Shown: positions 886-31,200 of the stretch, piece after piece
Numbering within the stretch: the stretch's first letter is position 1
How the letters are laid out: each line of letters opens with the position of its first letter
Source: a virus
Length of the DNA: 64,000 nt
Reading direction: 5' to 3' (one strand)
IMG/VR virus record: IMGVR_UViG_3300032249_000861
Location: 32,001 to 96,000 of that record
Program-made: the position numbers and the translations under genes
The notes under the pieces: model-generated
Told to the model about the DNA's origin: nothing
Seen by the model: only the letters and a program-made list of their open reading frames with translations
The model's database searches: none

Positions 886-1095
886 ATGATATTGTTTTCA
901 GAATTTAAATCCGGATCAAATGTAACAATAACTACTCCTAGTAGAGTACTATTCTCTGTTCCTGGCTTCGGAGGGAATGGTGAGCAAATTGTAACAATAA
1001 ACAATGAAATAATTTCATATTCAGCAAATCTATTTAATTCTGGATCCGAAATAAGAGAAGAATCCCCATTAGTTTATGGTATTATATCATCATGA
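886..1095 (+). CDS. small hypothetical protein
   Basis: Fills the gap in the operon; ATGA overlap with the next gene. Confidence 0.6.
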   Translation: MILFSEFKSGSNVTITTPSRVLFSVPGFGGNGEQIVTINNEIISYSANLFNSGSEIREESPLVYGIISS

Positions 1096-3249: not shown

Positions 3250-3283
3250 CAGACAATTTATTTAGGACAAGATAGGAAACAGT

Positions 3284-4027: not shown

Positions 4028-4041
4028 TTTTATGTATCATT

Positions 4042-4060
4042 TGGTGTAAGTCTTAATACA
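4042..4060 (+). promoter_or_regulatory. candidate late-promoter motif TGGTGTAA
   Basis: Same 8-mer at nearly the same distance (43 vs 42 nt) before the ATG as at 40503. Confidence 0.35.
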
Positions 4061-4084
4061 CGCACAATACAATGGGAGTTTCAA

Positions 4085-6560: not shown

Positions 6561-6583
6561 TTCATAAATATAGGAGATTTTAA

Positions 6584-7675: not shown

Positions 7676-7747
7676 GATTGGTTTACTATAGAAAAGTAGA
7701 TTGTTGATTTATCAAAGAGACTAAAGGACCAATAAAAGGACACAGGA

Positions 7748-7921
7748 ATGGAAGAGCTATATAATATAGTCGGTCGGTTATATGTCGATATACTTCATGC
7801 TCAGAAGTATGTTGAAAGCATACAAAATCAATTAAAAGACAAAGACACAGAGATCATATTACTAAAATCAAAATTAGTAGGTTTACCAAAAGATAAGGAC
7901 AAAAATGCTGAATCGGTATGA
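7748..7921 (+). CDS. small coiled-coil hypothetical protein (57 aa, not in ORF track)
   Basis: MEELYNIVGRLYVDILHAQKYVESIQNQLKDKDTEIILLKSKLVGLPKDKDKNAESV*; AGGA motifs upstream; ATGA overlap with the 7918 gene. Confidence 0.65.
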   Translation: MEELYNIVGRLYVDILHAQKYVESIQNQLKDKDTEIILLKSKLVGLPKDKDKNAESV

Positions 7922-8928
7922 GTCAGGAACTAGAACAATTTATATATCGTATTATAAGTGCTAAATTATTATTTACCTATAATAACAAAACATATGTTCT
8001 TGTTTCTACTAAACCGATAACTAAATATAGAGCTAATTTATTATATATTTCTATCTTAAATGATGAAAAATATGATGAGTGGATAAGGGCTGAAAATTTG
8101 GACAGATACATGATGTTTCTAGAAGTTTGGAATAGTGATATGTCTAGTTTTATGGAAAAATCAGAGAAACAGATAGAAGACTTAAAAATATCACTTTATA
8201 ATAACAGACTGAATAGTAAGATGACAACGAAAACAAGAAATCAACTAGCACATTTAAGAAAAAGAATATCTGATCTTCAACTTATAAAACAAACATATTA
8301 TGCTCAAACCTTGGAAGGATATGCAGAGAGTATAAAATACGAATATATTATTACGAATACATTATTTCATAATAAAAAAAGAGTGTTTAAAAAATTTGGA
8401 TCAGTACAAACATCATATCAAGAATTTACATCAGTAGTGTCAGAGATAAATAAATATGCACTACAAACATCGGATTACAGAAGAATTGCAAGATCAGATT
8501 TATGGAGATCTTTTTGGACTATAGATAAGACTAACATCTTCCCTGGACCAGTTTCATTATGGACAGAAGAACAACGAACATTGGCAGGATATAGTTCCAT
8601 GTATGATAGTGTATACGAACATCCCGAAAAACCTAATGATTCTGTAATTGATGATGATGATATGCTTGATGGTTGGATGATTAGTCAACGTAGAGCAATA
8701 GAAAAGAGTAAACAACAAGAGTCTATACTCAAGAGCAATTCCAAGCTTGGTAAAGCACAAGAAGTATTTATCTTTACCGATAATGAGCAAGGAATTAAAG
8801 AGGTTATGAGTATGAACTCCGATGAAGCTAACCTAGCCATTGCACAACGATCTAATATACTAAATAATACGCAATCAATAGATCATGCTCGCTTGCCAGA
8901 CGTTCAAAAAGATTTACTAAATAAATAG
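7918..8928 (+). CDS. putative tail assembly chaperone (long form)
   Basis: Lies between tubes and TMP; N-terminal two-thirds align by eye with the 9223 protein; extra C-terminal YDSVYEHPEKP..VIDDDDMLDGW segment. Confidence 0.5.
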   Translation: MSQELEQFIYRIISAKLLFTYNNKTYVLVSTKPITKYRANLLYISILNDEKYDEWIRAENLDRYMMFLEVWNSDMSSFMEKSEKQIEDLKISLYNNRLNSKMTTKTRNQLAHLRKRISDLQLIKQTYYAQTLEGYAESIKYEYIITNTLFHNKKRVFKKFGSVQTSYQEFTSVVSEINKYALQTSDYRRIARSDLWRSFWTIDKTNIFPGPVSLWTEEQRTLAGYSSMYDSVYEHPEKPNDSVIDDDDMLDGWMISQRRAIEKSKQQESILKSNSKLGKAQEVFIFTDNEQGIKEVMSMNSDEANLAIAQRSNILNNTQSIDHARLPDVQKDLLNK

Positions 8929-8938
8929 GATACAATAT

Positions 8939-9226
8939 ATGTCAAATTATCAACAACTACTCTACGACGTAGAAACAAAATTTAAAACAACAATGATTGG
9001 CTCATTGGCCAGATTTGAAGAAACATTTGGTCACTTATGGGAAGAAGAAGGGCCTGATCAACAGGAATATTTAGAATCTTGGGAATATACTCGAAATGCT
9101 ATTCTAAACAATGGAAACAAGCAAATGAGAGCAGCTTTGGATGATTTATCAGATGCTTTATTGGGGTCATATAAAACAAAATATACTTATAAGTTCAACA
9201 ACAGGAATAATGGAGATAAACAATGA
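8939..9226 (+). CDS. hypothetical helical protein
   Basis: 95-aa ORF with AGGA SD; ATGA overlap with the next gene. Confidence 0.7.
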   Translation: MSNYQQLLYDVETKFKTTMIGSLARFEETFGHLWEEEGPDQQEYLESWEYTRNAILNNGNKQMRAALDDLSDALLGSYKTKYTYKFNNRNNGDKQ

Positions 9227-10131
9227 AGACAAAGACTTTCAAAGCTACTATTGACGGTAAGGAAAGAGAATTTTTAGTTAAGACACCTTCTTTGACCGAT
9301 CAAAGAGAAGGACAAAAGGTTTATAACCAAGCTTTTACAGACGCTATTAAGAGCAAGAGTGTTGTTAGGGCTAAATTGGATGATCTATTAGAAGATCAAG
9401 GACTATGGAATGATGAGAAACAGGCTAAGTTCACAGCACTACAAAGAGAACTATTAGACGGCGAGAAAAAGCTAGCTAAGGGCGGGTTTAGTTTAAACGA
9501 AGCCAAAGACCTTGCTATTAAAATGAAGGGCGTGAGAGACGAAATCAGAGATCTAATCAGTGTTAGAACTTCTTTGGACAATCATAGTGCTGAAGGTCAA
9601 GCTGATAATGCTAGATTTAATTATCTTGTATCAGTATGTGTGGTGTATAGTGATAACAAAGAGCCATATTTTAGGAATATGGAAGATTATTTAAATCGAG
9701 CTACTGAAGAAGTTTCTTTATTGGGTGCTCAGAATTTGGCTAATATGATTTACGGATTGGATAATGACTATGAGACTAATTTGCCTGAAAATAAGTTTTT
9801 GAAAAAGTATAGGTTTGTTGATGACAAACTAAGACTAATTGACAAAAAGGGTAGATTAGTAGATGGTGATGGTAGACTAATTGATAGCAGTGGCAGATTT
9901 ATTGATGAAGAAGGCAATTTTGTTGATAAATATGGCAATAAGGTTACTTCAGACGGAGATTATATTGTTGAGCCACAACCGTTTTTGGACGACAATGGAA
10001 ATCCAGTTGTTCTAGAGGAAGAGAAAAAAGATGCACCAGCAAACACTGAGACACCACCAACACCTCTCCCAGTACAACCAGCAGCACCAGCACCAGAGGC
10101 TCAACCGCCAACTCCTCCAACTAATAGTTAG
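9223..10131 (+). CDS. putative tail assembly chaperone with DxxG beta-hairpin repeats and Pro-rich tail
   Basis: Last gene before the TMP; GGAG SD; 7-aa D-x-x-G-(R/N)-(L/F)-(I/V) repeats at about 9820-9960. Confidence 0.55.
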   Translation: MKTKTFKATIDGKEREFLVKTPSLTDQREGQKVYNQAFTDAIKSKSVVRAKLDDLLEDQGLWNDEKQAKFTALQRELLDGEKKLAKGGFSLNEAKDLAIKMKGVRDEIRDLISVRTSLDNHSAEGQADNARFNYLVSVCVVYSDNKEPYFRNMEDYLNRATEEVSLLGAQNLANMIYGLDNDYETNLPENKFLKKYRFVDDKLRLIDKKGRLVDGDGRLIDSSGRFIDEEGNFVDKYGNKVTSDGDYIVEPQPFLDDNGNPVVLEEEKKDAPANTETPPTPLPVQPAAPAPEAQPPTPPTNS

Positions 10132-10242: not shown

Positions 10243-13200
10243 ATGGCTACAGCTTTTAATTTGACAGCACAACTTAATTTACGCGGTCCAAATAATGTTA
10301 ACAAGATTGTTGCAGACATTAAAAAGCAACTAACTGGTATAACTGCTAATGTTAATTTAAAACTAGACCCTAACGTTGCTAAAAATGTTAAAGCTATTGA
10401 TTATTCGCTAAAATCATTAAATGCTACATTATCTAAAACAACTACAAATGCTGGTTCCGCAGCAGCTGCTATAGCCGCTTTTGGTAAAGCTGTTAATGCT
10501 ATTAGTATAAAAAATGTATCGCCGCAAATTAATGCTGCTGTAGCCAGCATGAATAAGCTAAATAAGTCAAGCAGCAATGTTTCTCAGTCATTAACTGAAT
10601 CAGCAACAGAAATGCAAGAGTTTGGAAAACAAGCAGGATTAGCTATTAGACGTTTTGCGGCATTTAGTGCTGTTACTGGAGTTATCTATAGTTTAAGTAA
10701 TAGTATTACTCAAGGAATTCAAGCATATATAGATTATGATAAAGAACTAGTTCGTTTACAACAAGTTACAGGCGAGACCGCTGGAGGTCTACAATTACTA
10801 CAAGACTCAATTTCTCAACTAGCAACAGGTTTCGGCGTTAGCTCAAAAGAATTAACAACAGTATCAGTTACACTAGCACAGGCCGGTTTAAGTGCTAAAG
10901 ATACCGAAAGAGCCTTAAGAGCACTAGCATTAAGTTCATTGGCCCCATCGTTCGATGATATGAATGAAACTGTAGAAGGTTCTATTGCTTTGATGAGACA
11001 GTTTGGAATTAGTGCTGGACAACTAGAACCAGCTTTAGGTTCCATCAATGCTGTTGCTGCTGCGTTTGCTGTAGAAGCCGATGACTTAATTACTGCTATT
11101 CAACGTACCGGTGGTGTATTCGCCACTGCTAGTAAAGGCGTTAGTGAGGGAACAGATGCTCTTAATGAGTTCATTGCTGTATTTACTAGTGTTAGAGCAA
11201 CTACTCGTGAAAGCGCAGAAACTATTGCTACTGGTTTACGTACTATTTTTACACGTATTCAACGAGGAAGCACCATTGATGCTCTCAAAGAATTCGGCGT
11301 TACTTTAACAGACTCAGAAGGTAAATTTGTTGGAGCGTATAAAGCTGTTCAGTTATTAAGTGAAGGACTGTCTAAAATAGACACAAGAGATATTAAATTC
11401 TCTAGAATAGTAGAAGAGCTTGGTGGTTTTAGACAGATTGGTAAGGTTATTCCTCTTATTCAACAATTCTCTGTTGCACAAAATGCTCTTAAGATAGCTC
11501 AAACAGGACAATCTTCTTTGGCTAAAGACGCATCAACAGCGCAACTATCATTAGCAAATCAAATTCAAAAAGTTCGTGAAGAATTCTTCGCACTATTCCG
11601 TGAAATTGGACAAAGTAAAGGATTCCAGTCATTGCTTACTGGGGTATTAACATTAACAAGAGGTCTAATTAAGCTTGCTGATGTCTCTAAGAGCCTACTT
11701 CCTGCATTAAGTGTTGTACTAGCGTTTAAAGGAGCTAGTGCTTTAACTCAGTTTGCTAGTGGTTTCAGTAAAGGCTTTAGACCTGGCGGCGGCAAACCAG
11801 AAAAAGAAAGACCGCGATTTGCAGATGGTGGACAAGTTAGATACTATGCTAAGGGAGGACATGTTGCTGGTAGTGGAAATTCTGATACGATACCCGCCAT
11901 GCTAACTCCTGGCGAGTTTGTCATAAATAAAAAAGCCGCACGAGCTGTCGGCTCTAAGAATTTAAATAGGATTAATAGATATGCTTCTGGTGGTAAAGTT
12001 AAAGATTTAGTTAATGATCCTAATGGTAAAAAATCTCTTAAAAAGGTCTATGATATAAATAAAGATTTTGATAGTTATGAAGATCCTACAATAGATAGAG
12101 TAGACCTCGACAAAACATATGATCAGTATACACAACAATCTAAACAGATTTGGTTAGAGGCTAATAAAAAATACAAACAAGATTTAGCTCAAGGATACAA
12201 ACCCCAAAAAGGAGACGTCCCCCAATTAGCAAATGCATATATAAAAAGAGAAACTGGTGGACTAGCTCAGAATCTTGGATTCAAAGAACTAAGAGAGCCT
12301 CAGACGGCTAAAAAATTAAATAAAATTCGTGGAGCTTTAGCTGAAAATGAAGTTAAGAAAAGATATAAATTAGGAAATCCTCTCGCTTTACAAGATGGGG
12401 CTGATTTTTATGATGCTAAAAATGACAGATTCGTAGAAATCAAAAATCAGAAAAAACAATTAAAAGATTCTACTCTGATATCAAAAACATTGCTAGCATT
12501 TGCTGCGAGAAAAGGAAACAAGTTAAATAATCAACCAGATTATGTTCCTAGTTTAAAAATTCTTGCTGTTGAAGCTCCAAGCCCAGACAAATATGATGAA
12601 TTTGAAGAAAAAAAACTTGGCGGACCAATTAATAAAAGAGTTAAACAAGCTGTTGACTTCAAGAACCTGCACAAGATTAATGGGTATGCTAAAGGTGGGC
12701 CTATTGCAGCAAATATTACTGATACTACAACAAGCGATGGAGATACATTAAATGTAAATTTTACACCAGAACAAAAACCATTTAATACTTTGAGCAGATT
12801 AGAAAATTGGGATGCTTTTGAAACAGATGATGTTCAAGGTTTCAAAATACCCGAATGGCAAAGAAAATTGGGTAGAGCGGCAGCGAAGGTTACTTCTGAA
12901 GAATACAATAAACAAGATGACAAAGCTTTGAAAGCGTTTAGGTCGTCAAACGGAGCTATGGATAATTATGGTCGCCCAATGTTTAAAGATGATAATTTGG
13001 GGTCAAAATTAAAAAACTTAGGATTAGCTATGCCATATAAAGGTAAAGGCAAAGCTCCTACCAAACAGCTATCAACATGGGGAGACTATAGAAATATTTT
13101 TGGATATGCTCCTTCACAAGCACCAGGATTACAAGGAGAAGAGATATCAGAAGATAAGGCTGTAAAAAAAGCTTTGGGAGGAATGATTCAAAAGTTTGAA

Positions 13201-16200
13201 GAAGGTGGAGTAGCTCAAAGAAAAGTTGGATATATTGATTATGATGTTATAGCTAATGAAGCTAATAAAGATATTGTAGAAAAAGGAATGAAAGAAACAG
13301 GATCTGATGGTCCTAGAATCTATTCAGACTATCTTACCAAATTAGCTGTTAATGCTAGGAAATCTTCTAGTATTCAAAAACTAAGAGCAATCTATGGTGT
13401 TGCTGGTAGTGGTAAAACAACACTAGCTCGCGGTCAAGGAACAGATAATGCTAGACTAAGAAAGACAGAAAGATTTCCAATTCTTAGTCCAGAAGATATT
13501 CAAAAAGCTACTGAAATATTAATCCTAACTAGTAGTGTAAGTCAAACTAAAATGGATGATTTCTTTGGTGATGTTGATAGAGCATATACATTAAGTTCGA
13601 CTACTGATGCAGAAAGAAGCAGAGTAAGGGATCAAAGAGGATCAAGAGATGTTACGGGGATTGGTTTAGAGGGTCGTCAGCCAGGAACTACTATGGGCGT
13701 TTCAGCAGATACTGCTGTTGGAGAGGCTTTATTATCAGATAAACTAGGAGCTAAATCTACAGTATTAGGAAGAAGTGGCTCTGGTAGACTAAGAAGAAAG
13801 AGCGGAAATGAATTAGTAGACATTGTCAAGAAGAGAATTGGTTTTACATGGGGTGGATTTGCCCCAACAACAGCTGGTCATGAATCAATTATGGATGCTG
13901 CTGCTGCTATGGGTATTCCTCCAGAAGACTTTATAGCACTAGTTGGAGCTAACGAAGCCGTAGACGCATCATCTTATCGCACAGCAATATTTGATCAAGA
14001 TTCCAGAGTATTGCTAGCCAAGGCTGGTTTTGGAGCAAAAGGAGCTACTGTACTTCCCAAGCCAAGAGATTTTGAAGTTCCTCAAGGTTTTGATATAACT
14101 CAACAGGGTTCTGATAGAAGACAAGTACTAATTCCCAGCCAAGGTAGTACAGCATTTGTTGCAGATAAAACAGAAGACCAGACAGCAAAATATAGACAAG
14201 CTGGATATGATGTTAAGAACATAGAACGAACCGGTGGTATTAGTGGCACAATGGTTAGAGATTTAATTATAGCTGGAGATATGGCTAAACTTCAATCAGT
14301 ATTGTCTCCTGGCGTATATGATCTTGTCTCGAATAACATAGGAAGAATACAAAATAGAGCTAGTGTTTTACCATCTCTTATAGAACAAGCTCAAAAAGAA
14401 GCACAAGCTGAAATGGGTCAGGTGGATCAACAGATAGAAGCTCTTGGAATCAAGAGAATAGATTCTAAAAAGTTGGAGAGTGACCCAGAATATGCAGCTA
14501 AAGTAGAAGTTCTTAAAGAGTTAAGAGCTAAAAAACAAAAGATCAAATCAGCTGCGGGATTCACCCCATATAAATTATTAGATGCTTTAGCCGAAAAAGA
14601 TCCGCAAAATTATGCATTGGACTTCTCCACATCATCTAACCTGGGTAATGTTCCAGACATGAGGGTCATGGGACAAAACTCACAAGCTTCAATACCAGCT
14701 GGTAGAGTTGCTCAATTAGCTCAAGAAAAAAATAAAAGTATTCAAGACGTTATACTAGAACAGCTAGGCGGATTGGGTGGTCCTGCTGGAGTTAAAAAAA
14801 TACTTGGCATAGGTAGTGGAGATAGAACATTAAGCTCATTATTACAAGCAGGAAATATTAAGGGAGGTAAAGGTCTAGACGAAGCAGCAGACTATGTTAA
14901 CAGAGCTTTAGCCGCTAGGGGTATAAGAGATGCTGCAGAAGCCAAAAGATTAGAGGAGTATCAAGCTAAGGCTCTTCATTTTGGTATTGCTGGTTTATTG
15001 CCAATGGATTACTCAAAAGAATTCGAATGGGATATTGGCGGTACCGATGTTTACGCTACTGCCAGAGGTTTTGGTAGTACGTATTTGGAAGAAGCAAAAC
15101 AAATGCAGAAGGAGTCATCAGAACTAGCTCAAAGATTTGCAGAAAATGTGCAAAATAAAAATATCTTTGGTGGTGGTGAAAAATTGGCTTTTGATTTTGA
15201 CAAAACATTAGTTGAGGATGCAGATATTCTTGATGCTAAGGGCAAGCCAGATATTGCAAAATATTCAAATAGAGAGGCTGTACAAGAAGCTCTCAAAAGT
15301 GCAAGACCAACCAGACTAGCAACTAAATTAAAATCACTCATAGAGCAAGATCCCCCATTTATTAAGAAAACCAGAATACTAACAGCTAGGCCACAAAGCA
15401 CAGCAGACCTTCTTGCACAATCATTACAAAGCTTTGGTCTTCCCTATGCCGAAACAGATATTACTGGAGTTAGTGGTGGCGTTAGTAGCAATATTCCTGC
15501 ATTAAAAGCTGCTAATTTACAGAAAGAAGAGAAACTTATTGATGATAGTTTAGATAATATTATGGCTGTTCGTAAAGCTGGTAAAAAAGGATTTCAATAT
15601 ACTGAACCCAAATCCACAACATCAGAACTAGACGAAAAAATGGGTCAGGGTAATATCGAGGGTGCTATAATAGAAAAAGCTTTGGCTGTTTTGGGTGCTC
15701 CAGTAAGGCCGGATGCTAAACAAAATAGAGCCATAGACTATCCAGACGGTTTAGGTAGTGCATCTCAATTCTTTCCTGGTATTGATCCTGGTATTCCAAC
15801 AGAAGTTAAAAGAACAATTGACGGTAGTAGTTTAGAGAAAGTTAGAGAAGAGATTGGAAGATACATAACAGGAGGAGCCCAAGCTGTTAAATTAGCTAGA
15901 GGTGGAGCCGTTCAAAGCTTTATGGCCGGTGGAGCAGCAACCAAAACCAGAAAAACAAAAGAGCCTTTCGGAACTGGTGAAACAGAATTTCCAACAAGAA
16001 TATCAAAAAAATATGCCGAAGAACAAAAAACTGCTGATGAATTTGCTAAATCTAAATTAGCATGGGATAAGTATCCTAAAGACGAAAGAATAATGGTTGA
16101 CGATACAAAAGTGCAAGAAGCTTATCAGCAACCATTCGATAGAGAAAGATTTGCTTCATCATTCAAAGAAAAAATTAGTCGCGACTCACTATTCCAAAGA

Positions 16201-19200
16201 ATGTCAGATTTTGCTAAGTTTGTAGGACTTCCAGAAGAAGACCTATCAGTAGCATTACCCCTACAATTAGATTTCGGCGCTAGCAAAAGAGGCGGTGGTC
16301 TAGGCATGTTCGCTGCTGCTCAATTTGAAAAAGGAGCAACCGGAATTAGGCCATATGAAGGCTATGATTTATCTAAATTTGGATATGGAGAAAAACAAAA
16401 ACAAGAAGCTTATGGATTAGAGAAGCTTATAACAGCAAAAGAAAAAGAAATAGCAAAGATTAGAAAAACACCAACTGAAACTTATGATGATGGTAGTTTC
16501 TCTTTTGATAGTGAAGCATTCCAGAAAACCAGTATTGAGTTAGATAGCCTTAAAAATAGATTATTTAAACTAAAAGATTTAAAACGTGACGCAGAAAAAG
16601 CGGCACTGTCTGAGCAAAATACTACTTCATCAGCTGCCGGTCGAGGAACTATCAGCTTTGCTTCTTCTATGGGTTACTCTAGCGATACCAAGAACAGCAC
16701 CCTATACCACGAAATGACTCATCAGCTATTTCAAGGACTAAGAACAAAATCAGCAGGGAGTTTTGATAAATATCGAGATAGAGTATCGTCATTATTTTCT
16801 GGAGATAATGATGATTTAGCAGACGCTTTTGACTCCTTAACGGCTGGGGGCGGATATTCTAGTGCTGATGTTGTATATGGTAGAAGCTATAAGTCAAATA
16901 ACTTAAGTCAAATACTTTCGAGCTATTATCGTCAGAATCTTGATTTTTCTAGAAGTGCTGCTACTATTCCCCAAGATACGACAAAAAATCTTGCTAGTTT
17001 AAGTACCCAAAGCACAGCCGCCAAAAGAGCCAGAGAGTATAGACCAATAAATCCTAGAGTTAACGAAGCTTTACTTCAAGCTGGCGATAAGTTTGGAATG
17101 ACTCAAGAGAAGATTGATAGAATGGAAGATAATGGTAAAGAAGAGTTCTTAACAACCTTAATGGAAAAAGCCCCTCAGCTTGATCAAAATTTACAAGGAA
17201 TTTTAGACTCTACTTTAACAGAACTATTGAGTGGAGCTGGAATTCAGAGACAAAAATATGCAGCAGGAAGAAAAGTAGATTACGAATCTGGTGTTGGAGT
17301 ATCACCATTCGGAGGTTCGATATCAAAAAGATTAAGCGAGTCAGTTTATAATCTGCAAAAGGGTACCGGACTAAGTGATCCAGAATTCAATGAGATCAAA
17401 AAGACAGCAGATACATACGGATATAATGAAGAAGAATTTAAAGAATATTTAGCAAAAAGAATACAAGAGAAAAAGAATAAACAGGGACTAAGAGCCAGTC
17501 CATCAGCCTTGGCACAGCAGTTGATGCAACAAAAAACAGTATCAACACCCAAACAGCTAGCATTAGCAGAAACACTAAAGGGTGAGCCAGATGCTGGTTA
17601 TAGACCCATACCAACAGCAGCCGAAAGAATAGCTTCAGATCGAATGGCTGTTCAGAATGCCACAAGAAGATTTGCTAGTGGAGGCACTGTCTCGGCTTTA
17701 GTTAGTAACGGCGAAGCTTATGTTCCGCCAAAAATAGCCAAGAGAATTGGTTATGGTAATCTTAATCGTATGAATCAAGCTGATCGTAACGGGATGAGCA
17801 AGTTCTCTAGCGGTGGTATTAGTGTGTTTAAAGGTCCTGGGACTGGCACTAGTGACAGTATTCCTGCTAATTTACCAGTTGGTAGTTTTATTATTAGAGA
17901 AAAGGCTACGAAGGCTTTAGGTCTTAATAAGGGAGGTGCTGTACCAGCACAAAGATTTGCTACTGGGGGTAGCGTAACAAGCATGATTATGGAATGGTTG
18001 TCATCAGACATGACTGCTGGGACTAAGCCTAAAATGCCTCAAAGACCTGATATTGTTAGTAGGGCTACTGTTACAGCTTCTTCTGATACAACAAAAGAGT
18101 TGGATAATCTAGTTAAATCTCTTAATGCTGTCGGGTTTAGTGCAAAAGAATCTGCAGACATATTGAATAGGGGCGGGCAGGTTAGTTATAAAACTATAGA
18201 AAAAGCTTTGGTTAAAGATATTGAGAGATTAAAAAAATCTACAGCAGGTATAGATCAAATTACTCAAGCAGAAACAACTTTAGCAAGAATTCGTAATCAG
18301 ACAAAAAAAGATGTTGGTAGTAAACAAAAAATGGAGGAAGCTTTCAGAGGATCAGGAAGATCATCCGGCTCTGTGCAGCAAGAAATTTATTCTACAGCCA
18401 TGTCTATGGGCGAACAGAATATAGAAGCAAAAGAAGCTGCGAGAAGAAAGAAAATACCACAAATAGAAAAAAGAGAAAGAAAAAAGCTTATAGAAAGTAA
18501 GCGAGAAGATTTTATTGAGAAAGAATATAAAAATCAAGTAGCTAAAGAACAAAAAACTAAAGGTAGAAAATTAACAAGTACAGAAAAAGATAAAGTTAGA
18601 TCTGATGCAGAGCTTAAGGGAAATACAAAAACTTTTAAATTAACTACAGAAGAAAAAACCAATGTTAAAGCAACAGCACAAGCCAAAACCACATTATCTG
18701 CTGAAGAAAGAACAAAAGAATACAATAAAGCAGCGTTAAGGGCGACAACCTCGGTTACAGGAGCAAGTAAATCAGAATTAGCAGCTAAAAACGTTAAAGG
18801 TTCTGATATCTTAAGATATGCTCAAGAGAGTATGAGAGATCGTAAAACCCTAGCCGAAATGGATAAACAGTTTGTGGCTATGGCAATGGATGAGTATAAA
18901 AATCGTGGCACTGTAAATGGTATAGTTGTTAAGAGTGCGGCTGAAGCTAAAAAAGCTGCTGAAGAGGAGATCTCAAAGAGAAGAGAAGCTATTAATGCGA
19001 GAGCTTCACAGAATGGAGAAAAAGGAGTCGGTGCTGCTGGGTTGAGAGACTATAGAAATAGTCCCATACTTAATCAGATAAAGGGATTTATAAAATCTCC
19101 TGGAAGAGTAATGGGTGGAGTGTCTGTTGCTGCTGGGCTAGCTGCTGGCTCTTCCGATATGATTGCTAAAAATATGTATGATATGAGTACAACAGAGGGC

Positions 19201-22200
19201 CAAGGGAAAGCTGCTAAAACTTCTGCAGCTATTCAGTCTTCTGGTACTATTCTTAGTACTGGATTAGCAGCAGCATCACAGATGGCAACCATACCAGTTA
19301 TTGGTCCTTATGTTGCTGCTCTTACTGCTGTGGGAACAGCTGCTGCAGCTGCTGCTGATTATTTTTATGATTTTACAGGAGCTCAAAAGGCTGCTACTGT
19401 AGAATTCGAAAGATCAGTAAGGGCCAAAGAAATTGGAATTGCTATGGATGGTTTAGATAGAGCATTCCAAAATTTTGAAAAAGACATGGGTAATATTGAT
19501 TTACAAAACGCTTTAGAAAAATCCCTCGGCGGCGCATCCTCTTTGCAAATTAAAGATAATATGGCAGAAAGAGACAATGCTAAAGCAGAGTTCTCTTTAA
19601 AGAATAGAAGTTGGTCGGATATTTTTAGTGGAAACTTCAAAGGTTCCGCCAAGATGGACGCTCTTCAGCAAGGTGCTATGGATAGTGAAATGTCTCAAAA
19701 GATAACACCAATAGCAGATAAGGCTATGTCGTTATATGAGAAACAAATTAGTAGCGGTAAGAGTATACAAGATATTGTTAATAATGTTCGTACAGGAAAT
19801 AAAGAGGCTGGAGCTGCTGGTTTTGCTGTTGCTGCAAGTGTAAATCCCAAGTTGTGGTCAGAGTTAGAAGCCAAGATAGCAAAATCAGGAGATACTTCAG
19901 AGCAGAATAGAGAAAAAATTCAAAAAGAAATAGCTGCTAGAGAATTACTGACCAATGTTCAATTACAGTCAATTGAAAGAATGGCTAAACTAAATAAAGA
20001 GATGGATGCTGCTGATAGAGCTGGTCGCAGATTGGCTGAAACTTTTGAACACATAGGTGAAACTATTGATCAGTCAATTCAGAGAATGCAAAGAGAGTCG
20101 CAAATTCGTCAAGCTCAAGCTAACGACAGAGTAGAAGCTAGAAGAGGAAATGCTGGTTTTGATGAGAGGGCTGTTAATAACAGAAATGTTGGAGTACTAA
20201 CCAGTCCAAAAGCATATCAAAATGATCCTGGGCGCATAGAAGAAGCTATCAGAGCAGGAACTACCGGCATGTCCCCGGAACTTGCTCAAAAAATGGCTGG
20301 TGGAGCTAGATTAGAAGCTACTTTACCTAATGTGATGAGAAATGCAGTATCTTCAGAGCTTAAAACAAATGCCAATTTAGATCTTGCTGAAGCAGCAGAT
20401 GCCGCCAGGAAAAAAGGAACAGAAGCTATTCAAAGGTCTGGATTATCAGAAGCTGACCAAAAAGTTGCTATAGATAAATTAAACACAAAATTAAATAGTG
20501 AACAAGAAAAAGCACAAAAAGAAGGAGGAGATAGTCCAAGACAGAAAGTTGACTTTTTTATTGATTCTGTTAGTGAGCTTGGTCCAGAAATAGCTAATAT
20601 ATTTGGTAATGCTGGTAAGAGACTAGATGATATTATTCAAGCCAGACAAGGAATCTATGATACTTTTGCAAAGAATCTTCAAGCCGCCTCAGAAGCTGCT
20701 AAAAAAGCACGAGAATTTTTCAGTAAAGCAAGAGACATAAGATATAATGCTGGAATGGATTTGAGAGAAGCTCAAACGGGCGTAGGAGAAAGTTATGCTG
20801 AAGCAAAAGCTAAATCTGATAGTAGTATTGCACGATTAACTGGCGGGGTTACCGATCCTCAAGCTATTGGTAGAAATATTGATGCTTTAACGGCTCGTCG
20901 TGATCAGCAAATGAAAGCTAGAGATGCCGCAGCATCTGATCCAAATCTAACTCCAAAACAACAAGAAGATGCGGCCATAAAATTTGCTAAAGATATTCAA
21001 GCTACTAATAATGCTTTAAACGATAATAGAGAAGCACTAGATAAGCTAGCTAATAGTGCTGAAGTAGCACAAAAAGCTTTAGACGAAGTTAAGAACATTA
21101 GAGGACTACAACAAGATAGAGAGAACTTTGTTAATCAATTACTAACAAATACTCCAGCAGAAGCAGACAAACTTAATCAATCATTTATTAGACTTCAGCG
21201 TAACTTGTCTGGTGGGTTAAATAATGCTTCTAATCAAAGAGATGCCCGAAATGCTTTTAATGATACGTTACGTCGTACAGGTAATCTAAGAGAAGCTACT
21301 CGCGCTGGAAATACTGTATTAGCAGATCAAAGAAAACAAACCCTACAGCTGATGCAAGATCCTGGATTTAGGGGTATGATGACCCTTAATATGAAAAATC
21401 AGGGAATGAATGATCAACAGATAGATAAGAAATTCAGAGATCAAGAGAGTATGCTGATGCAGCAGATGGCTGTTGAAAGTGGAATGATCAATAATCCAAT
21501 GGTCAGACAAGCACTAGCCGCAAAACAAGATCCTAATGCTGATCCTGCCATGAAACGTGCTGCTGAACAATTTTTACAGTCAACGGGCTTACAGGCAAAA
21601 GCTACTGAGGAGCAAGGTCGATTAGAATTAGCTAATGTGCAAAGCTTATTAATAACATCTACTGATGATTTAAGAACGTCTATAGATGCTTTAACAACAA
21701 GTATTAATGCTTCGTTAGGTCCAGACGGAGAAAGAGTTCCTGGCGCTGTTGGGCCTATGGTGCCTGTTCCAGCCGGGGCCAGAGGAGCAGGTCCTATTGG
21801 ACGTCCTATTAGACGAGCTACTGGTGGTAAAGTCAATACTCAATATGCTAGTACTGGTAAATTAATAGACTTTTCTCCCAAGGGTACCGACACTGTTCCC
21901 GCCATGTTAACCCCCGGTGAATTTGTTGTTAATGCCAAAGCAACGGCAGACAATTACCCACTGCTAAAAGCTATTAATAATGGAACTAATCTAGTTGGTA
22001 ATACGGCTATGATGAGTAAGGGTGGAGTTGTTTATTTAGATAATGGCGGATTAATAGATGAGTTTAGAAGAATAGATTCTAATAGTTCCAACTTTTTAGA
22101 AGTTGGTGAAATAGATCTTAAAATGATGCAATTATTAGATACAGATAAAGATAATAAAGTTTCATTTAGAGAATATTCTGCAAGAGCAAAGAGCGGTGGT

Positions 22201-25200
22201 AGTGGATCTTCAAGATCTGGTCAAAGATCACCAGTTAATAGTAGTTTTAAAGCCGACAATCTAAGCTTTAAAGCGTATTCTAATGCTAGAGAAGAAAAAT
22301 ACTCAAAAAGATACGAAGGCACCAGAGATCGATTCCCTAGAGAAACAGAGAAATTTTCTAGTGGGGGCTTAGTTACTCCATACTATTTACAGGACGGAAC
22401 AGAAAAACCACTATCTAAAAGACCCTTTATGGTAAAGATGGAGAAACCAGAAGACCCTCTTGAGGCTGCTGAACGCCGTCGTGCCCGTGCTCTTAAAGCG
22501 TCCCATCCAGAGATTACTAGAGTCAGACAACCATCTTTGGTTCCTGGGGATCCTAGAGCATTAAGACACAAAGAAAGCTTCTATAGACTAGATGTTAATA
22601 GTGATGGTGTTCTAGATGCAAAAGAAGGCAGACCACATCCTGAACTTGATAGAGATTTAGATCGAAGAATAACACTAGAAGAATGGGACGGAATCGATCC
22701 TGGTGAATTTGACCCAGATGATTCAAGCCATGTTCTGCGAGACAGTAAAGGCAATCCTTTAACTCCTGGACTTATGGGAAGCCCATTTGAAAAAAGGCAT
22801 CGTTCTTTAATGGCTTCTGTTGCTATGGATGAAGAAAAACTTGCTAAGGGTGAACCTTTAGTGGACTCTAATGGAAAACCCATAGACTTAGCAAGTAAAA
22901 GGAAAGAACTAGCCATATTTAATGCTCAGTCTGGTCTATATAATACTAGTCAATCACTTATAGCAAGACAAAAAAATATTGACGATAGTCTAACCAAACG
23001 ATTAACTGGTGGCGGTTCTCTTCGTAATCCTGATAGTTCTTATGCTGTTACGAGAGAATTTAATAAGATTCGTGATCGGAGATCTGCTTTTGAAGAAGAA
23101 AGAAGAGGTCAAAGAGCCAAAGATGAGAACGCAACAGATGAAGAGATATTTGATCGCACAGTAGAAGCCTATGGGCAGGGAGATTCAGATTATTGGCGTA
23201 GTATGGGCGTTACTGAAGCACCAAACTCTTATGATGAATCTAATACTCTGAATTTTATTCGCTCAGGTGATCGTCTTGCAAGCAGAGGAGATCCTTATGG
23301 AGACAAGGCCAGAGCATATATAGACGGATATATCGCATCACAAGGTGCTAGACAACAGCAGGACAGAGTAGATATTGGCATGGGAAGACCTACCATATCT
23401 CCGGACAAAGCTGTAGTAGGTACTCAAGGTCCAGTAGACGATCTTAATTATTTGATAGACCGAAATGAAGTAGGTAGAGCGGTAAAGTATAAAGCAGAAC
23501 AAGCAAAGACTGAGGAAGAGAATAAGCAGAGAGATGATGCTCAGGTAAAACAAGCAGAAAAACAAGCAAGCTTAGAAAAAAGAGATAAAGAACTAGGCAT
23601 AGACACTAGCGGCATTAATCGAGATATATATGAGAGTGGTGGGGGTTTTTCAAATCAGCCAGGAAGTGGCAGAAAAGTTACAGTAGAAGAACAAACACAA
23701 AGAAAAAGAGAAAGGGCTATAGCAGATAGATTTTCGTTCACAGATAAAACAGGAAAATACTCTACTGCTGGTACTATTGATAAGGTTGATTTTGAAAAAG
23801 GTACAGTTAAAATAGCTAAGATGGATCCGAAAACTGGGGAGCCTATTACCAGAACGGTTCCGGTTTTTGCTGGTGGTGAAACAGAAGAAGCGATTAAGGC
23901 TTCTGGTAGAGATCCCAGAAGATTCAAGGTTGGGGAGAAAGAAGAACAAGTATACACTACTGTACCACTAGATAAGCTTAGTGATAAATCTAGAGATAAA
24001 GTTAGATCTTATGGCTTAGAGAAAGAAGCAGACAAAGCTAAGACTGGTGAAAATTTTACAGTTGGCACTAGTTTTGAAGATTATAAAGGTAAAATATTTA
24101 GAGTAGATGAAAAATCTGAAAAAGTTATTGTTCAAAAGGAAGATGGCAAACTAGTTAGTGTTCCTATGGGAATAATAGATCCCGAAACAAAAAATATAGC
24201 ACTAGATCAAGCCAAGACAGCTACTACAGTTACTGATTTAACACAGAAACAGATGGATGCAGATATCGGTAATATTGATTTCACTTCATCATTACCAGAA
24301 CCTCAGGTTCCATTAATTGAGGACTTTACTGATAGAGCAAATGAAGTTCGTCAAGAGACTATGAACAATGCTGCTTTAGAACAGACAAAGATGGATCAGT
24401 TACCGGTGATGTCTGAACCAGTACCAACTTCAGGTACTATTGATCCTCTTACTGGCAAAGTTGTTGGGAATAATGTTTCTATGGACTTGAATCCAGACGG
24501 AACTCGCACTCCAGAACAATTAAACATATTAAACCAACAAGCTACCAGAGATGCAGACAGACGTAATTCTAACGCAAGATACGAGGAGCTTAGAGCTCGA
24601 TCAAAAGCAGAGTCTTCATATGACAGATCATGGTTTGGAGAAAACTGGCCCAAAGAATGGGGAGGAGTATCAAAGCCCGAAAAAAGATTAACAAGAAAAG
24701 AATTAGAAGAACTTGGGGCTATGGAAAGTGAAAGAGGTGTTCCTGCATTATCAAGATTAGGAGCCAACACAAGAGTAGAACAAACAAGGAGAAATGCTGG
24801 GTTAGACGAAGCACAAATTGAAAGTTTGAGTCAACAAAAAACAGAACAGTTTAAAGCTGAACTTGAGAAAAAAAATGACGCAGAAGGTGGGGTGGCTGTT
24901 GGACTAGCTGCTCAAAGAGCAGTAGTTCCATTATTAGCTGGTGCTACCGCTGTTGCTGCTGCGCCTGCTTTAGTTCCAGCAGGAGTAATTGGTGCTGGAC
25001 TTACCATTGCTGGCGGTGTTGGTTTTAGTTTGGGTGCTAATAAACTACAAGATGTGGCATTAGAAGGTACAGATTTTGACAAGAGGCAAAAAGAATTGGC
25101 AGAAAAAAGGCCAGGAGCAACTGCTGTTGGGTCTTTATTACCAGGATTATTAACGGGCAATCCACTGACTGGTGCAACTACTCTGCGACAAGCACTAGCA

Positions 25201-28200
25201 ACAAGAGCTGCTAGCGGAGCTACTGAAGCAGCACTAGGGGCGGGCATCAGAGGAGCAACTAGTGGTGGAGATTTCGGTACCGTACAAGATGTTGGAATGG
25301 ACTTTATCTCTGGAGCTATTCTTCCGTCTCCTAATTTTGGAGGTAAGGGATCAAAAAACTATAATATTCCAGAAGGTCCAGCAAAACCCAAAACAGAAGC
25401 AGTCGCTTTAAAAGAACTTGCTAAAACAGTTAAGGCTGAACAACGAGCAATCACAGAAGAAAATGTTCTTGATGGTGCTGAAATATTAGCAACAAAAAGA
25501 AAACAAGAAGAAGTTAGAAGAGCAGCACAAGAAAAACAAAGAGTCAGAGATGAAGCAGAAGCAGTGAAAGAATCAGGAAGAGAAAAGGCTGTTTTTGATG
25601 TTTTCACTATTGGAGGAAGATTAAGTGATGATAATATAGCCAGTGCCCTAAAGTCAGCCAAGGAAAAAACTGTAACAGGAACCAAGTTACTAACCGGCAA
25701 AGTTACCGGCAAGCCTAGGGGAGATTTAATAGAGCAGAATCCTACACTAGCTAGTAGACTAGGGGTGTCAACTCCAGGATTAGATGCTGTCAAGAATGGA
25801 CAAAATATAACAGCAAAAGATTTAGTTGCAAAACTAAAAGATGAAGGTTTTAGTGAAGAATATGCTAAGAAGGTCTCAAGAGAGCGTACTCTTAAGATGG
25901 TATCAGATCTTGCTACCGAACGATCAAAAAGAAAAGATGAATCAATACAACAAGTGGCTTCTGAATATAAAGACGCTGTAACTGGTGTTGAAGATCCTAA
26001 TAAGCGAGCCAAAATTAAGGCTAAATTTCAAACCAGACTGCAAAAAGAACTATCGTCTATAGTATCTGACACTAACGACAGAGCAGAAGCATTTGATTCT
26101 GGTATGACGGTTCAAGAACTTAAAAAACAAAGAGCAGCAGAAGCTCAAGCCAAAGATAAAGCAGAGTCTGATAAATTAATACAAGAGTTTGATTCTACTC
26201 TAGGATCAAGTAAGCCAATAACTATTGATAATCCGCCCATCGGAGAACCTCTCGATCTAGGAGTAGACCCACTCGCACCAATAACGTCTGCCAGGGATAA
26301 TGCCGCTACTACGGCAGCTAGTACAAAACCGATATCAACAGAAGAACAGTCTCCGGTTGGAGAAACCACAATTCCTCAGCCTAATAAAGATGCTGCTGAT
26401 ACCGTAACTGCCGGTACAAAACCAGTCGATGCTGCAACAGTAGCAGCAAAAAACCAGACAGTAGTCAAGGCAGCAGAACAAGAAAATACATCTTCGCTAC
26501 AAACATCAGCGATACCGCAGCCCAAACCCTATAATCCTACAGATTATCCTATTATGGATAGTATTATGAGAGGAGGAAAGAACGGCCATTATGGTCCGAT
26601 GGGTACTACTAATATAACAGGTAAACAAAATATTCATGGAATAAGCGGATGGAAAACTAGACTCATACCAAAAGACGACGCGTCTGCAGCAAAAATTAAA
26701 GAATTTTTAGATACTCATCCAGATATAGGGTCATATAAGTTAGCATTAAATGAGGGACCAGTACCAGTATTTAGTGTCTATTTCAAAAAAGGCACCAAAG
26801 ATGAAGCACTATCTTTTGCACAAGCTAGTGAAAAAGGACTAAAAGATAGTTTAGATCCTCGTTTATATCAGGGTGCTGATACTCTGCTAGAAGGGACAAA
26901 TATTTCCGCAAGATTTGATGCTAGAGATCTAAAGAATAAATCAGCATCATCAATTATAGATAGACAACTAGAGAATTCTCCTTTTAGTAGAGGATTTTTA
27001 AAAGCTGAAGAACTGAATCTACAAATACTTCCATCAAATACGGCACCTGGGTCAACGGCTAGCAGAGCAATGCCAAACATTACTGCTGGCACCAGAGGAG
27101 TACCAGATACCGGGTATGTTGATTGGTTAAAAACAAAAAAGTTTTTGGCGAAAGATCCTAAAAAGATAGCTAGTCTAGATGCAGAGATACAAAGAGCTAC
27201 TAACGTAGCAGATGATTGGCTAAAAGAAAATATGTCCGACATCTACAGCGCATCTGCTGAACGAACAGCTAGAGAATCAACAGGCCCACAACAACAAGCA
27301 GTAGTTGAAACAGCAACAAGAGACGCTACGAGCAGGCCAACCAAATCCGGTTTTGTTCGAGATAAATCATTACCGATAAACGAAGTAGACGATCTAGCTT
27401 CTGCCGGATTTGGAGTTATAAGCCCAGACCAAGAAGTAGAAAGTGTTATAAGGGGTGCAAGAGAAAATTTTCTTGGCTCTTTAACTAAACCAGCAGCATT
27501 ATTACAGCCAGAAACATACCAAAAATATGCAGACCAACTATTAGAACTAGAAAAATCAGGAAAAATAAAAATAACCAAAGGCGCTTCATTTGGTACTAGT
27601 GGCCAACCAAGTATATTTGTAGGAAAACCAGAAAATGTAGATATTCTTGCAAAAGCTTTTGAATCTGAAACAGCAAGGACACGAGAAACGAGAGGTTCAA
27701 CATCAAATGAATTTAAAGAAACGGTAGGAAAAGCATTAGGATATAGTAAAGATAGTATAGCCCTACATATATTAGAAAAAGATTGGGATAAAGCAGGATT
27801 AGATATAGACACTATTCAAGATAGATTACAAGTTAGTCGTGGTGCTGCTGCTCGGTATATGGTATCAGAAATTAATAAAGCTAAAGAACAAGCATCAGTT
27901 GAGCAAGGAGTAAAAGAATCAATAAACCCGCCCATCAAAGATCCTATTACTGGAGATGAATTTGAATTAGGACCTGGAGATGATTTTCAATTAGGAGGTC
28001 TTGGAGAAGATCCGTTGGCACCGGCTCCTATAATAAAACCAGAAAATGTATTACCTGAAGCAAGAGCAGAATCAGAAGCTCGTAGAGCCGAAACAGCAAC
28101 CTCACGAACTAAATCTAGTATTGTTGATGAAGATGAGTTTGTTTTAGGAGACATGGAAGATGATAGTACTGTCGTAGCTGTTGAGCCTGACGATGGTTCG

Positions 28201-31200
28201 AACTTTTTTGGAGAAGCATTCGCTGCCGCCGCACAAGAAGCCAGAGCCATAGAAGCAACAAGGGCTCAGATTGAAACCAACGATAAGTTTGTTGTTGACC
28301 AGCCTGATATGATGACAGCTTCAGAGCTTGACCCAATAACAAGAGCTTCTAGTAGGAGGGTTTGGGGATCTGATAAGGCTTTTGAAAATATGCCCAAACC
28401 CAAAATTTCTAGAGAAAAAGTCAAAGCACTAGACACTGGCGAGCCTGACGAGATGACAGCTTCAGAGCTTACTCCTCTACAGAGGGCCGTTATTAATAAG
28501 TCATTCGGACTTGATTCTGATAAAGGTTTCGAATTGCGAGAACAACTTATAGCTCAAAAAAGAGAAGCAGATATACTTCCAGAAGACTTTTTTCCAAACG
28601 GTTCATCAAGAACAGAAACTCCATTATCTTCAGCTAGAACAGAAGCAGAAGCTAAGAATCCTGGTACCGTATTTGAAGGACAGTTAGAAGCAGCATTAAC
28701 CGATGCTTCTTCTCCAGAAGCTTTAAAAGCTTCTGCAGAAGCTCAACAAAGATTAGCAGCACAAAAATTAGCAGCAAAATCTCCAGAACAAATATCTGTA
28801 GAAAAAACATATGGTCCTTTATATAGAGAAGCTAAAAAAGCTAATGATACAGCGGAGATGGCCAGAATACGATTAGAAGCTAATGCAGAATTTAAGAAAC
28901 GCTCTCAAGAAGCTTCTACAAGATCTGAAGATAAAAAGAACAATTTCCTTCCTGTTATGGGTAGGGTCTTAAAGATAGCCGCCCCAATCGGATCAGCTAT
29001 TGGTTATGGACTAGGATCGTTATTAAGTGGTTCTATGGGCAGAAAAAAAGAAGAACCTCAAGATTTAGCTTCTAGGTTAGAAAATGCTTCTGATCTACAA
29101 GAAGTTTTTGATCTTTTAAAACTAGCAGAAAAAGACAAGATAGGAAACCCGACTAATCCTTTAAGAGAAATAGGCGGATCATCCCCACTTATTGCTAAAT
29201 TACAAAAACTAGCTCCAGAAATATATGGTAAAAAAGGTAGTGACTATTTTAGCTCTCAAGACTTAGCAGCTATGCCGGAAGACGCATATAATGAGAATTT
29301 TCTAGAAAGATTAAAAGATAATGCAACATTCGAGAAGATGAAAAGAGAACAAAAGGTAGCTGAACCTGCTCGCTTAAAGAGTGATGAGGCTGCACGGGCT
29401 ACAACAAGAGATCTTATAACGCAATGGTCTCAAGACTTTGCTATGGCGGGTAATGATGTCCGAACTCCTCCAGGTTCTGATCCTAAAAAAGCTAGAAATC
29501 CGTTAAAAGCCATGTCACGAGAAATGGCAGAAAGAGCACAAGAAAGAAGAAGTGGATTCCCCACAGACGATCAAGGAAACGATCTACAGATAGGCACTAT
29601 GATTCCCGCCCCGATATCGGTTTTAGATCGTACAAAAAATGATGCTGCAGCGATGAGAGAAATTGACGAAAAAGATAATAATGCTGCTCCGATGCTGGAA
29701 GTTAAGAAACCAGTAAAGAAATCTCTTGGGGGTTTAATTTATGCGTCGAAAGGAACCTTAGTAAACTACCAACCTCGTGGAACTGACACAGTACCAGCAA
29801 TGTTAACTCCGGGCGAGTTTGTTGTTAATGCCAGAGCAACAGCAGATAACTACCCATTACTAAAAGCTATTAATAGCGGAACTAACGTTGATACTACTGC
29901 TAATATGAGTAAGGGCGGTGTGGTTTATGCTCAAGAAGGAGCATTAGTACCTAGCTTCGGAATGCATATTCCATCTTTAGATCCAGACAAAAATACTAAA
30001 TTAACCCTATTACCAGAAAGCTCTTTAGATCAAGCAAATACAAAAGAAGCTTTTCGAGAATATGGAAACGCTCGACCTTCCTATCAATCAAGACCACAAC
30101 TACCAAAGCCAACTGTTCAATCAGGATCTTTTAAAGAAGGAGTTCATGATAGAAATTCTGTTATAAAAGATAGTGAATATTCTAGAAGTTTAAAGAGAAT
30201 GGGTATTCCACACGTATCACAGAGTGGTGGATCTAAAACCTATTTGGATCAAAATGGCAGAGAAATTTCAGCAAATGAATTTAAACTTTTACCAGAAACG
30301 TCTTTTAATCATCCAGAATATGCAGTCATGCGTAGCAGAGCAGCTTTTGCTGCTGGAGCTGCTAAGTCTGTTGTTCCTCAAATGGGGGCTACGTCTGGGG
30401 CTATAGCAGGAGCAGCTGCCGGAGCCGTATTAGGACCTCCCGGAGTAATTGCCGGAGGCTTGATTGGAGGTTTGACTGGTGGTATAATGGGATCGGCATT
30501 ACAAGAAACAGCATTAGATATAGCAAATCCAGAGGCTAACGCTATAGCTAATCAACTAATGGATCAAAATCCCGTATCAGCAATGGCAGGATCAGCAGCA
30601 GGAGACATTGCAACAGGAGGATTACTATCATTAGCCTTGCCTTCTATACCAACACCAACAAGGGCTGGAGATTCAATGGTTGGTCCCGGAGGACTAACAC
30701 CAAAACAAATAAAACATGCTGAAAAAGGATTAAATAGACCCATATCAGAAGCGATTACTCCGTTTACAGGAATGAAAGGATTTGGAGGTCGTTATGTTGA
30801 CGGTCCAATAAGTGTTGATCAGTTAGTATATAAATCCAGAGACAACTTGGCTGAGAGTATTCATTACTCTGGGGCAGATCCCAAAACATTTGATTCATTA
30901 ACAACAAGATTAACAGAACCTGTTCCTGGAGCTCTTGGTGATTATTACCAGGGACTAAGCAGGATATCTCCTAAAGCTCCTCCAGAACATATTATTGGAA
31001 CAATAGCTCATGAGGCTGGCCATCATTATCAAACAATGAAGGACCCTACTGGAAGATTCGTAAAAACTTGGATGTCAGATAATAGAGATCAAGCAAGTGA
31101 CTGGATTTTAAAAAGAACATCCTCTCCTCAATATCTTGAAACTGCAACTCCAAGAAACCAGGTGAATTATGGAGTTAATGATATGCTGAGTGGGGATTTT

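Follow-up and report, generated by a model that had tools for sequence, protein, structure and literature searches.

Two enzyme-like modules within a giant tape measure protein

The window analysed here comprises 64,000 nucleotides of viral DNA (positions 32,001 to 96,000 of the IMG/VR virus record IMGVR_UViG_3300032249_000861), and this report is concerned with one part of it, positions 13210-15600, in which the motifs of a P-loop domain, a HIGH-type nucleotidyltransferase domain and a HAD phosphatase domain follow one another. According to the list of open reading frames (ORFs) and their translations, the studied stretch lies in frame within a single ORF of 7,574 amino acids, which encodes a giant tail tape measure protein (TMP). 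The three motif sets had been read from the sequence in a preliminary description, and all of them were recovered at the positions reported there, in the frame of this ORF. The stretch also contains a helical tail and a domain of ~160 residues, and the constant partner of the HAD domain, a small PD-(D/E)xK-like domain, falls just past its end (up to 15852). Comparison with homologs points to two independently inherited modules, one built on the P-loop and nucleotidyltransferase domains and the other on the HAD and PD-(D/E)xK-like domains. As modelled, module A (residues 985-1480) joins the P-loop domain, an adenylyltransferase of the PPAT/NMNAT class and the helical tail; module B (residues 1481-1870) joins the ~160-residue domain, the HAD domain and the PD-(D/E)xK-like domain (Table 1).

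Both modules are framed by glycine-pair junction motifs of the form (F/Y)-x-x-GG-x-(V/I/L). The first, FEEGG, stands directly upstream of module A, and a cluster of three (RYITGG, LARGG and FMAGG) closes module B. By a regular-expression scan no such motif was found between FEEGG and the cluster, from residue 989 to residue 1868, in agreement with the earlier statement that no boundary-type GG pair separates the three domains.

By its N-terminal tape measure domain, its length and its place in a tail gene block, the ORF is a tape measure protein. The tape measure domain occupies the N-terminal ~500 residues, in which Pfam PhageMin_Tail matches residues 188-382 (E 6.5e-22, with 78.8 bits where the cut-off is 33.2), the ORF matches ten PHROG tape measure families, and a minor tail protein is encoded downstream. 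The source record, an IMG/VR virus contig, is 110,025 bp long and was judged 73% complete, so that the absence of a gene from it is weak evidence. None of the 50,697 deposited phage genomes searched was matched by tblastn or blastn.

Homologs were collected through a HMMER scan of 1.84 billion representatives, which yielded 150 relatives (representatives at 50% identity), nearly all of them 2,000-7,300 residues long. The term long homologs denotes the 114 of these 150 proteins that have at least 2,000 residues, and they were tallied by the parts of the 886-residue query that they matched.

Table 1. Position of the tape measure protein, the two modules and their junctions in the window
Feature	Residues	Position	Strand	Basis
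Giant tail tape measure protein carrying the modules		10243..32967	+	ORF list, Pfam, PHROGs, N-termini of homologs
FEEGG junction motif immediately before module A	985-989	13195..13209	+	F..GG kept at the module start in homologs
P-loop domain, putative hydroxyl kinase (module A)	990-1195	13210..13827	+	Walker A, invariant residues
HIGH-type nucleotidyltransferase domain (module A)	1195-1378	13825..14376	+	Motifs, fold matches of the AF2 model
Helical tail (module A)	1379-1480	14377..14682	+	Always inherited with the P-loop and nucleotidyltransferase domains
Domain of ~160 residues (helices, three-strand meander, long helix), usually preceding HAD (module B)	1481-1640	14683..15162	+	AF2 model, pLDDT 67-89
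HAD phosphatase domain (module B)	1643-1788	15169..15606	+	Four motifs, matching fold of the AF2 model
Small PD-(D/E)xK-like domain (module B)	1800-1870	15640..15852	+	Conservation map, co-occurrence, dN/dS
Cluster of three GG junction motifs (RYITGG/LARGG/FMAGG) closing module B	1868-1895	15844..15927	+	Regular-expression scan of the translation

Module A: a P-loop domain joined to a nucleotidyltransferase

The P-loop domain carries the Walker A motif GVAGSGKT (residues 1052-1059, nucleotides 13396-13419), whose lysine is kept in 84 out of 84 sequences in a local hidden Markov model (HMM) alignment of the 150 database representatives. Its other invariant residues are P1083-x-D1085 (13489-13497), R1135, R1145 and E1161, the first of which are placed just after predicted strand 2 (strand 89-95 of the AlphaFold2, AF2, model). 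T4 Pnk, zeta toxin and chloramphenicol phosphotransferase, which are hydroxyl kinases, share this arrangement of a Walker A motif, an aspartate after strand 2 and an arginine, and by analogy with these enzymes the aspartate may be the catalytic one and the arginines, which sit in a flexible loop, may act as lid arginines. None of the kinase HMMs matched the P-loop domain, and the Zeta_toxin HMM had no match in the record; “kinase” is therefore likely but unproven for this domain, an identity that is weakly supported. The fold-match lists obtained with the model of module A were filled by nucleotidyltransferase hits.

A distant variant of the P-loop domain was also seen in another large ORF (L022:301-1083, of IMGVR_UViG_3300008012_000022), with 33% identity in the domain alignment and with inserts. 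This match ends at query residue 250, and that ORF may lack the nucleotidyltransferase or have another domain in its place.

The nucleotidyltransferase domain is marked by GGFAPTTAGH (residues 1204-1213, nucleotides 13852-13881) and by ISGTMVR (residues 1333-1339, nucleotides 14239-14259; 14227-14259 with the arginine that precedes it). The key residues of these two superfamily motifs, (H/T)xGH and ISxTxxR, are invariant in the alignments. An AF2 model of module A (residues 985-1480), built from a 20-sequence alignment, reached a pLDDT of 86.8 and a pTM of 0.79, the latter of which indicates a fixed packing of the P-loop domain against the nucleotidyltransferase domain. The AF2 models of both modules are confident and agree with the expected folds, and in module A a Rossmann-like fold was found that matches solved HIGH-signature nucleotidyltransferases of the cytidylyltransferase-like kind, being NMNAT/PPAT-like by fold. 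A fold search of BFVD with module A returned only phage proteins described as “cytidyltransferase-like”. At the profile level, module A matched the phage NadR-like protein Bas30_86 (PDB 9x6f) with an E-value of 0.0022 over the GxFxPxTxGH segment, and MJ0951 with an E-value of 4.6e-6 over the ISGTxxR segment only.

The hits to MJ0951 and HIGH_NTase1_ass also brought acetate ligases of the TmcAL/CitC type under consideration, and these were rejected: the likeness is confined to the 40-residue ISGTxxR segment, and with fold Z scores of 8.7-10.6 they rank below PPAT and NMNAT.

Module B: a HAD phosphatase beside a probable nuclease

Four catalytic motifs define the HAD domain, namely DFDKT (residues 1651-1655, nucleotides 15193-15207), TARP (1714-1717, 15382-15393), K1755 (15505-15507) and DD (1767-1768, 15541-15546). 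All four are invariant and the fold is Rossmannoid, with the nucleophilic aspartate placed after strand 1, as in the HAD superfamily. The AF2 model of module B (residues 1481-1870, 19 sequences) reached a pLDDT of 84.3 and a pTM of 0.61, and the best fold matches of its HAD domain were T4 Pnkp, Pnkp1 and AphA, with the Pnkp matches exceeding AphA by ~1 Z unit or less, which is a shallow gradient. From these comparisons the domain is predicted to be a capless phosphomonoesterase of the type seen in Pnkp and AphA (class B/C acid phosphatases), and within the superfamily it leans towards the branch whose phosphomonoesterases act on nucleotides and nucleic acids, a lean and not a proof.

The small domain that follows shows a PD-(D/E)xK-like pattern made up of E1811, D1832-[FY]-P and [ED]1854-x-K1856. 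Its dN/dS values, 0.015-0.03, mark it as the most strongly constrained part of the region, and from its sequence pattern it is a probable nuclease. The ~160-residue domain between the enzyme modules is poorly conserved, yet among the 64 long homologs with a HAD module ~49 contain it.

The HAD domain also has free-standing relatives. A total of 347 hits were obtained, including complete proteins of 150-290 residues (P0158, P0165, P0209, P0267 and P0273), and this family carries the signature FDFDDTL...LTARPQ...ADD together with a cap insert, some of its members being assigned to Pfam DUF2608. When free-standing relatives of the P-loop and nucleotidyltransferase domains were sought, the hits were almost all fragments of giant proteins at the sensitivity of the search used.

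Conservation, modular inheritance and the fate of the single-cassette view

Each catalytic motif residue of the three domains is at least 95% conserved across ~65-90 distant homologs, down to ~26-30% identity, and the motifs are therefore not due to chance; the observation of the three motif sets is real, and far beyond what chance would give. In comparison with relatives that are 86-92% identical, dN/dS was ~0.02-0.23 in each domain, a sign of purifying selection, with values as low as 0.02-0.04 in the nucleotidyltransferase and PD-(D/E)xK-like domains. These figures bear on the idea that the domains are catalytically dead filler, adding only length or bulk to the tape measure. The length of the TMP sets the length of the tail, and no family HMM passed its threshold anywhere in the modules: a sequence search of the 886-residue region against the PDB gave no hit, and when the region and its sub-domains were scanned with Pfam, NCBIfam and PHROGs, the only matches were to CTP_transf_like, HIGH_NTase1_ass and generic Walker A families, all of them below threshold, with no HAD family and no kinase family over it. 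Nevertheless, dead filler would hardly retain every catalytic motif residue at such a depth of divergence, nor show the low dN/dS values of the nucleotidyltransferase and the PD-(D/E)xK-like domain, and this explanation is considered very improbable.

The distribution of the domains among the homologs speaks for two modules. The P-loop domain, the nucleotidyltransferase and the helical tail co-occur in essentially all of the ~65 long homologs (out of 114) that carry them, and the HAD domain co-occurs with the PD-(D/E)xK-like domain in ~64. Both modules are present in only ~20 of the 114, in 11 of which they are contiguous as they are here and in 2 of which their order is reversed, whereas module A stands without the HAD domain in ~46 long homologs and the HAD domain without module A in ~45. 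The preliminary description had treated kinase, nucleotidyltransferase and phosphatase as one cassette, a view that does not survive this comparison.

The same comparison weakens the reading of P-loop domain and HAD phosphatase as the Pnkp combination, and favours a NadR-type kinase-adenylyltransferase logic, since the P-loop domain is inherited with the nucleotidyltransferase and not with the HAD domain. In a Pnkp-like end-healing system, the P-loop domain would be a polynucleotide 5'-kinase and the HAD domain a 3'-phosphatase, and together they would mend the ends left in tRNA or DNA by anticodon nucleases of the host or by nucleases of the protein itself. The fold matches of the HAD domain to T4 Pnkp and Pnkp1 suit such a role, although their narrow margin over AphA does little to single it out. 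Moreover, the two domains lie ~590 residues apart, they occur independently of each other in ~90 of the 114 long homologs, and hhalign to T4 Pnkp (PseT) aligned the Walker A and DD motifs only, with probabilities of 15% and 11%. Within the record, 73% complete, neither the PNK3P HMM (PF08645) nor the RNA ligase HMMs (RNA_lig_T4_1 and RNA_ligase) found a match. End healing, which the preliminary description had offered as one of two known precedents, is thus regarded as quite unlikely.

Outside the modules, the N-terminal tape measure domain is common to 105 of the 114 long homologs and the C-terminal region to 88. As read from these alignments, the TMP is a conserved scaffold, with N- and C-terminal parts common to a clade of large uncultured phages and with interchangeable cargo in the middle. 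A large family of this kind (150 representatives at 50% identity), in which the cargo is shuffled, offers a natural system in which to study the transit of folded enzymes through a tail tube and the pay-off of each cargo for each host.

Further observations concern the TMP and its surroundings. A PAMLTPGEF box occurs four times in the protein (at 11893, 21898, 29794 and 32209), and the region of this box at residues 520-600 is present in 102 of the 114 long homologs. Weak matches to the Pfam families EF-hand_5 and EF-hand_1, below their cut-offs (E 3e-4 to 8e-4), lie at ~22120-22630 in the second half of the TMP. Three large proteins encoded downstream of it (32988-36515, 46294-50082 and 50533-52032) match phrog_18508, annotated “kinase”, weakly (E 1.7e-5 to 2.4e-7), matches that probably reflect a shared repeat or structural domain and not a kinase. 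Ten consecutive ORFs upstream of the TMP (1092-10131) had no PHROG match at E <= 0.001, and the tail sheath HMM Phage_sheath_1 had no match in the phage record.

Proposed function and delivery

The best explanation, to which roughly even odds (about 0.5) are given, is that both modules are active enzymes that are borne by the TMP and delivered to the host, with module A phosphorylating and adenylylating its substrate and module B dephosphorylating its own. The cargo enzymes would sit in the variable middle of the giant TMP, which would be expelled from the tail ahead of the DNA and would carry both modules into the host at infection; because the TMP is the first protein out of the tail and precedes the DNA, both modules are probably host-delivered at that time. 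For module A, a coupled phosphorylation followed by adenylylation (or the reverse), yielding a dinucleotide-type cofactor, would be the most likely chemistry, and the leading guess for its product would be NAD+ made from nicotinamide riboside, as by NadR and by the NARP3 enzyme. Module B would remove phosphates from nucleotides or from 3'-phosphate ends of nucleic acids, beside its probable nuclease. Virion delivery had been proposed in the preliminary description, and the TMP context makes carriage and delivery plausible by analogy with phage P23-45, whose TMP is fused to an RNA polymerase; the “first minutes of infection” that had been named as the time of action can only be inferred.

Several points weigh against this explanation. 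At the sequence level the modules belong to no characterised enzyme family, and even Pfam CTP_transf_like, which aligns over its full length (2-132 of 133), scored only 13.4-17.4 bits against a cut-off of 21. In the fold comparison PPAT and NMNAT tie exactly, so that the substrate of module A is not decided, which is in line with the earlier remark that it cannot be read from the sequence. Further points concern NadR itself. The order of module A, P-loop domain followed by nucleotidyltransferase, is the reverse of that in NadR, where NMNAT precedes the RNK-type kinase; VIA alignments to NadR (8x7f and 6gye) cover the nucleotidyltransferase only; hhalign of the module profile against E. coli NadR gave a probability of 3.7%, at the HIGH motif only; and the P-loop domain is smaller than the ribosylnicotinamide kinase of NadR and resembles it at Walker A only. 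HMMs for the PnuC transporter (NMN_transporter, PF04973) and for NadV (NAPRTase) found nothing in the 110-kb record, which is 73% complete, and no other partner in NAD salvage was seen there. Given the reversed order, the motif-only hhalign results and the lack of partners by HMM, the unit is not assigned to NadR, to the NARP3 enzymes or to Pnkp, and its mode of action may still be that of one of them.

The NadR combination, the other precedent named in the preliminary description, fared in a mixed way: the co-inheritance of the P-loop and nucleotidyltransferase domains and the match to Bas30_86 stand on its side, while the reversed order and the hhalign result do not. The structural classification that had been suggested as a check likewise placed the nucleotidyltransferase near NMNAT and PPAT and the HAD domain closest to the T4 Pnkp phosphatase, and left the likeness to NadR confined to the nucleotidyltransferase.

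NAD+ is kept as a leading guess that is unproven, with CoA-type or other products nearly as likely. In its specific form, the alternative holds that module A makes dephospho-CoA or CoA (PPAT followed by a step resembling that of dephospho-CoA kinase), FAD or another NDP-activated small molecule, or that it modifies a nucleotide immune signal. The equal standing of PPAT in the fold comparison leaves room for it; yet the candidates are all sub-threshold or tied, the sole profile match to a characterised two-domain enzyme is the one to the NadR-like Bas30_86, and no partner genes point towards CoA or flavin metabolism. It is held as a tentative alternative of fairly low probability.

The last point against the proposal is one of quantity. 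A virion contains only a few copies of the TMP, and the enzyme molecules that it could bring would hardly be able to rebuild a millimolar metabolite pool early in infection. The modules may instead act on a scarce target, or in the late infected cell. In the latter direction, the enzymes might not be injected effectors at all: they could do their work during tail assembly or in the cell that produces the phage, which makes many copies of the TMP late in infection, and proteolytic cuts at the GG junctions may set them free. A bulk metabolic role is ill-suited to a few delivered molecules, and the junction motifs do bracket the modules. However, nothing points to proteolytic processing, the TMP-fused enzyme of P23-45 is able to work after delivery, and the cargo lies between TMP ends that are conserved in 88-105 of the 114 homologs, all of which makes a role confined to the producing cell or to assembly unlikely.

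Delivery to the host can also be carried one step further, to a speculative picture that is doubtful as a whole. The TMP would be a modular “effector train”, in which cassettes are swapped between phages and each working enzyme is injected ahead of the DNA. Module A would then serve counter-defence as a pre-loaded enzyme, producing or changing a nucleotide cofactor or an immune signal at the entry site before phage gene expression, and module B would be a phosphatase-nuclease pair acting on nucleotides or nucleic acids. If the picture is true, metabolic counter-defence would gain a new route of delivery, and it would suggest that some phages arrive with their counter-defence chemistry pre-loaded.

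Comparison with known systems

Three elements of this picture are already known, namely polyvalent virion proteins, one enzyme fused to a tape measure (that of P23-45) and phage NadR-like enzymes. Among the papers that were searched, none was found to describe a tape measure protein with kinase, nucleotidyltransferase or HAD domains.

Among the single-domain comparisons, the nucleotidyltransferase of module A is 17-20% identical to bacterial PPAT (CoaD) and archaeal NMNAT and falls below the Pfam and NCBIfam thresholds, and it differs from both by the extra helical tail and by the fusion to a P-loop domain. The class B/C acid phosphatases AphA and e(P4) are ~15% identical to the HAD domain, and they are periplasmic, secreted, oligomeric enzymes with cap elements. 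By fold and by its DxDxT, (S/T)xR, K and DD motifs, the HAD domain is of the type found in T4 Pnkp and in the Pnkp1 of the Pnkp1/Rnl/Hen1 complex; in contrast with T4 Pnkp, the P-loop and HAD domains are here neither adjacent nor co-inherited.

The closest relatives in architecture are NadR and Bas30_86, which, like module A, combine a P-loop domain and a HIGH-type adenylyltransferase within a single polypeptide. Phage NadR-like enzymes have been described before (PMC9503650; PMC13464706), and Bas30_86 (PDB 9X6F/9X6H), which has the TxGH form of the motif as module A does, is the enzyme of NARP3, a phage counter-defence, and makes NAD+ from nicotinamide riboside (PMC13464706). NadR and Bas30_86 are free cytoplasmic enzymes, whereas module A is embedded in a tape measure protein; more generally, the NAD+-rebuilding and RNA-healing enzymes of phages are otherwise known as free proteins of the cytoplasm, made after infection.

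With regard to the scaffold, the polyvalent proteins of phages and conjugative elements combine many unrelated enzyme domains in one virion-associated polypeptide, for which action at entry has been predicted (PMC5512222, Iyer et al. 2017). Their multi-domain nature is likewise seen in the TMP described here, although the text of that paper includes no tape measure proteins, no NMNAT and no polynucleotide kinase, and the scaffold in the present case is the tape measure itself. A nearer likeness is gp96 of the Thermus phage P23-45, a TMP of 5,002 residues with an N-terminal RNA polymerase that is active after delivery (preprint 10.1101/2022.12.01.518664). Both are giant TMPs with an enzyme; that of P23-45 is an RNA polymerase at the N-terminus, whereas the putative enzymes found here, directed at small molecules and nucleotides, lie mid-protein, in cassettes that are shuffled. 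If the proposal is true, this single experimental precedent would extend to small-molecule and nucleotide enzymes.

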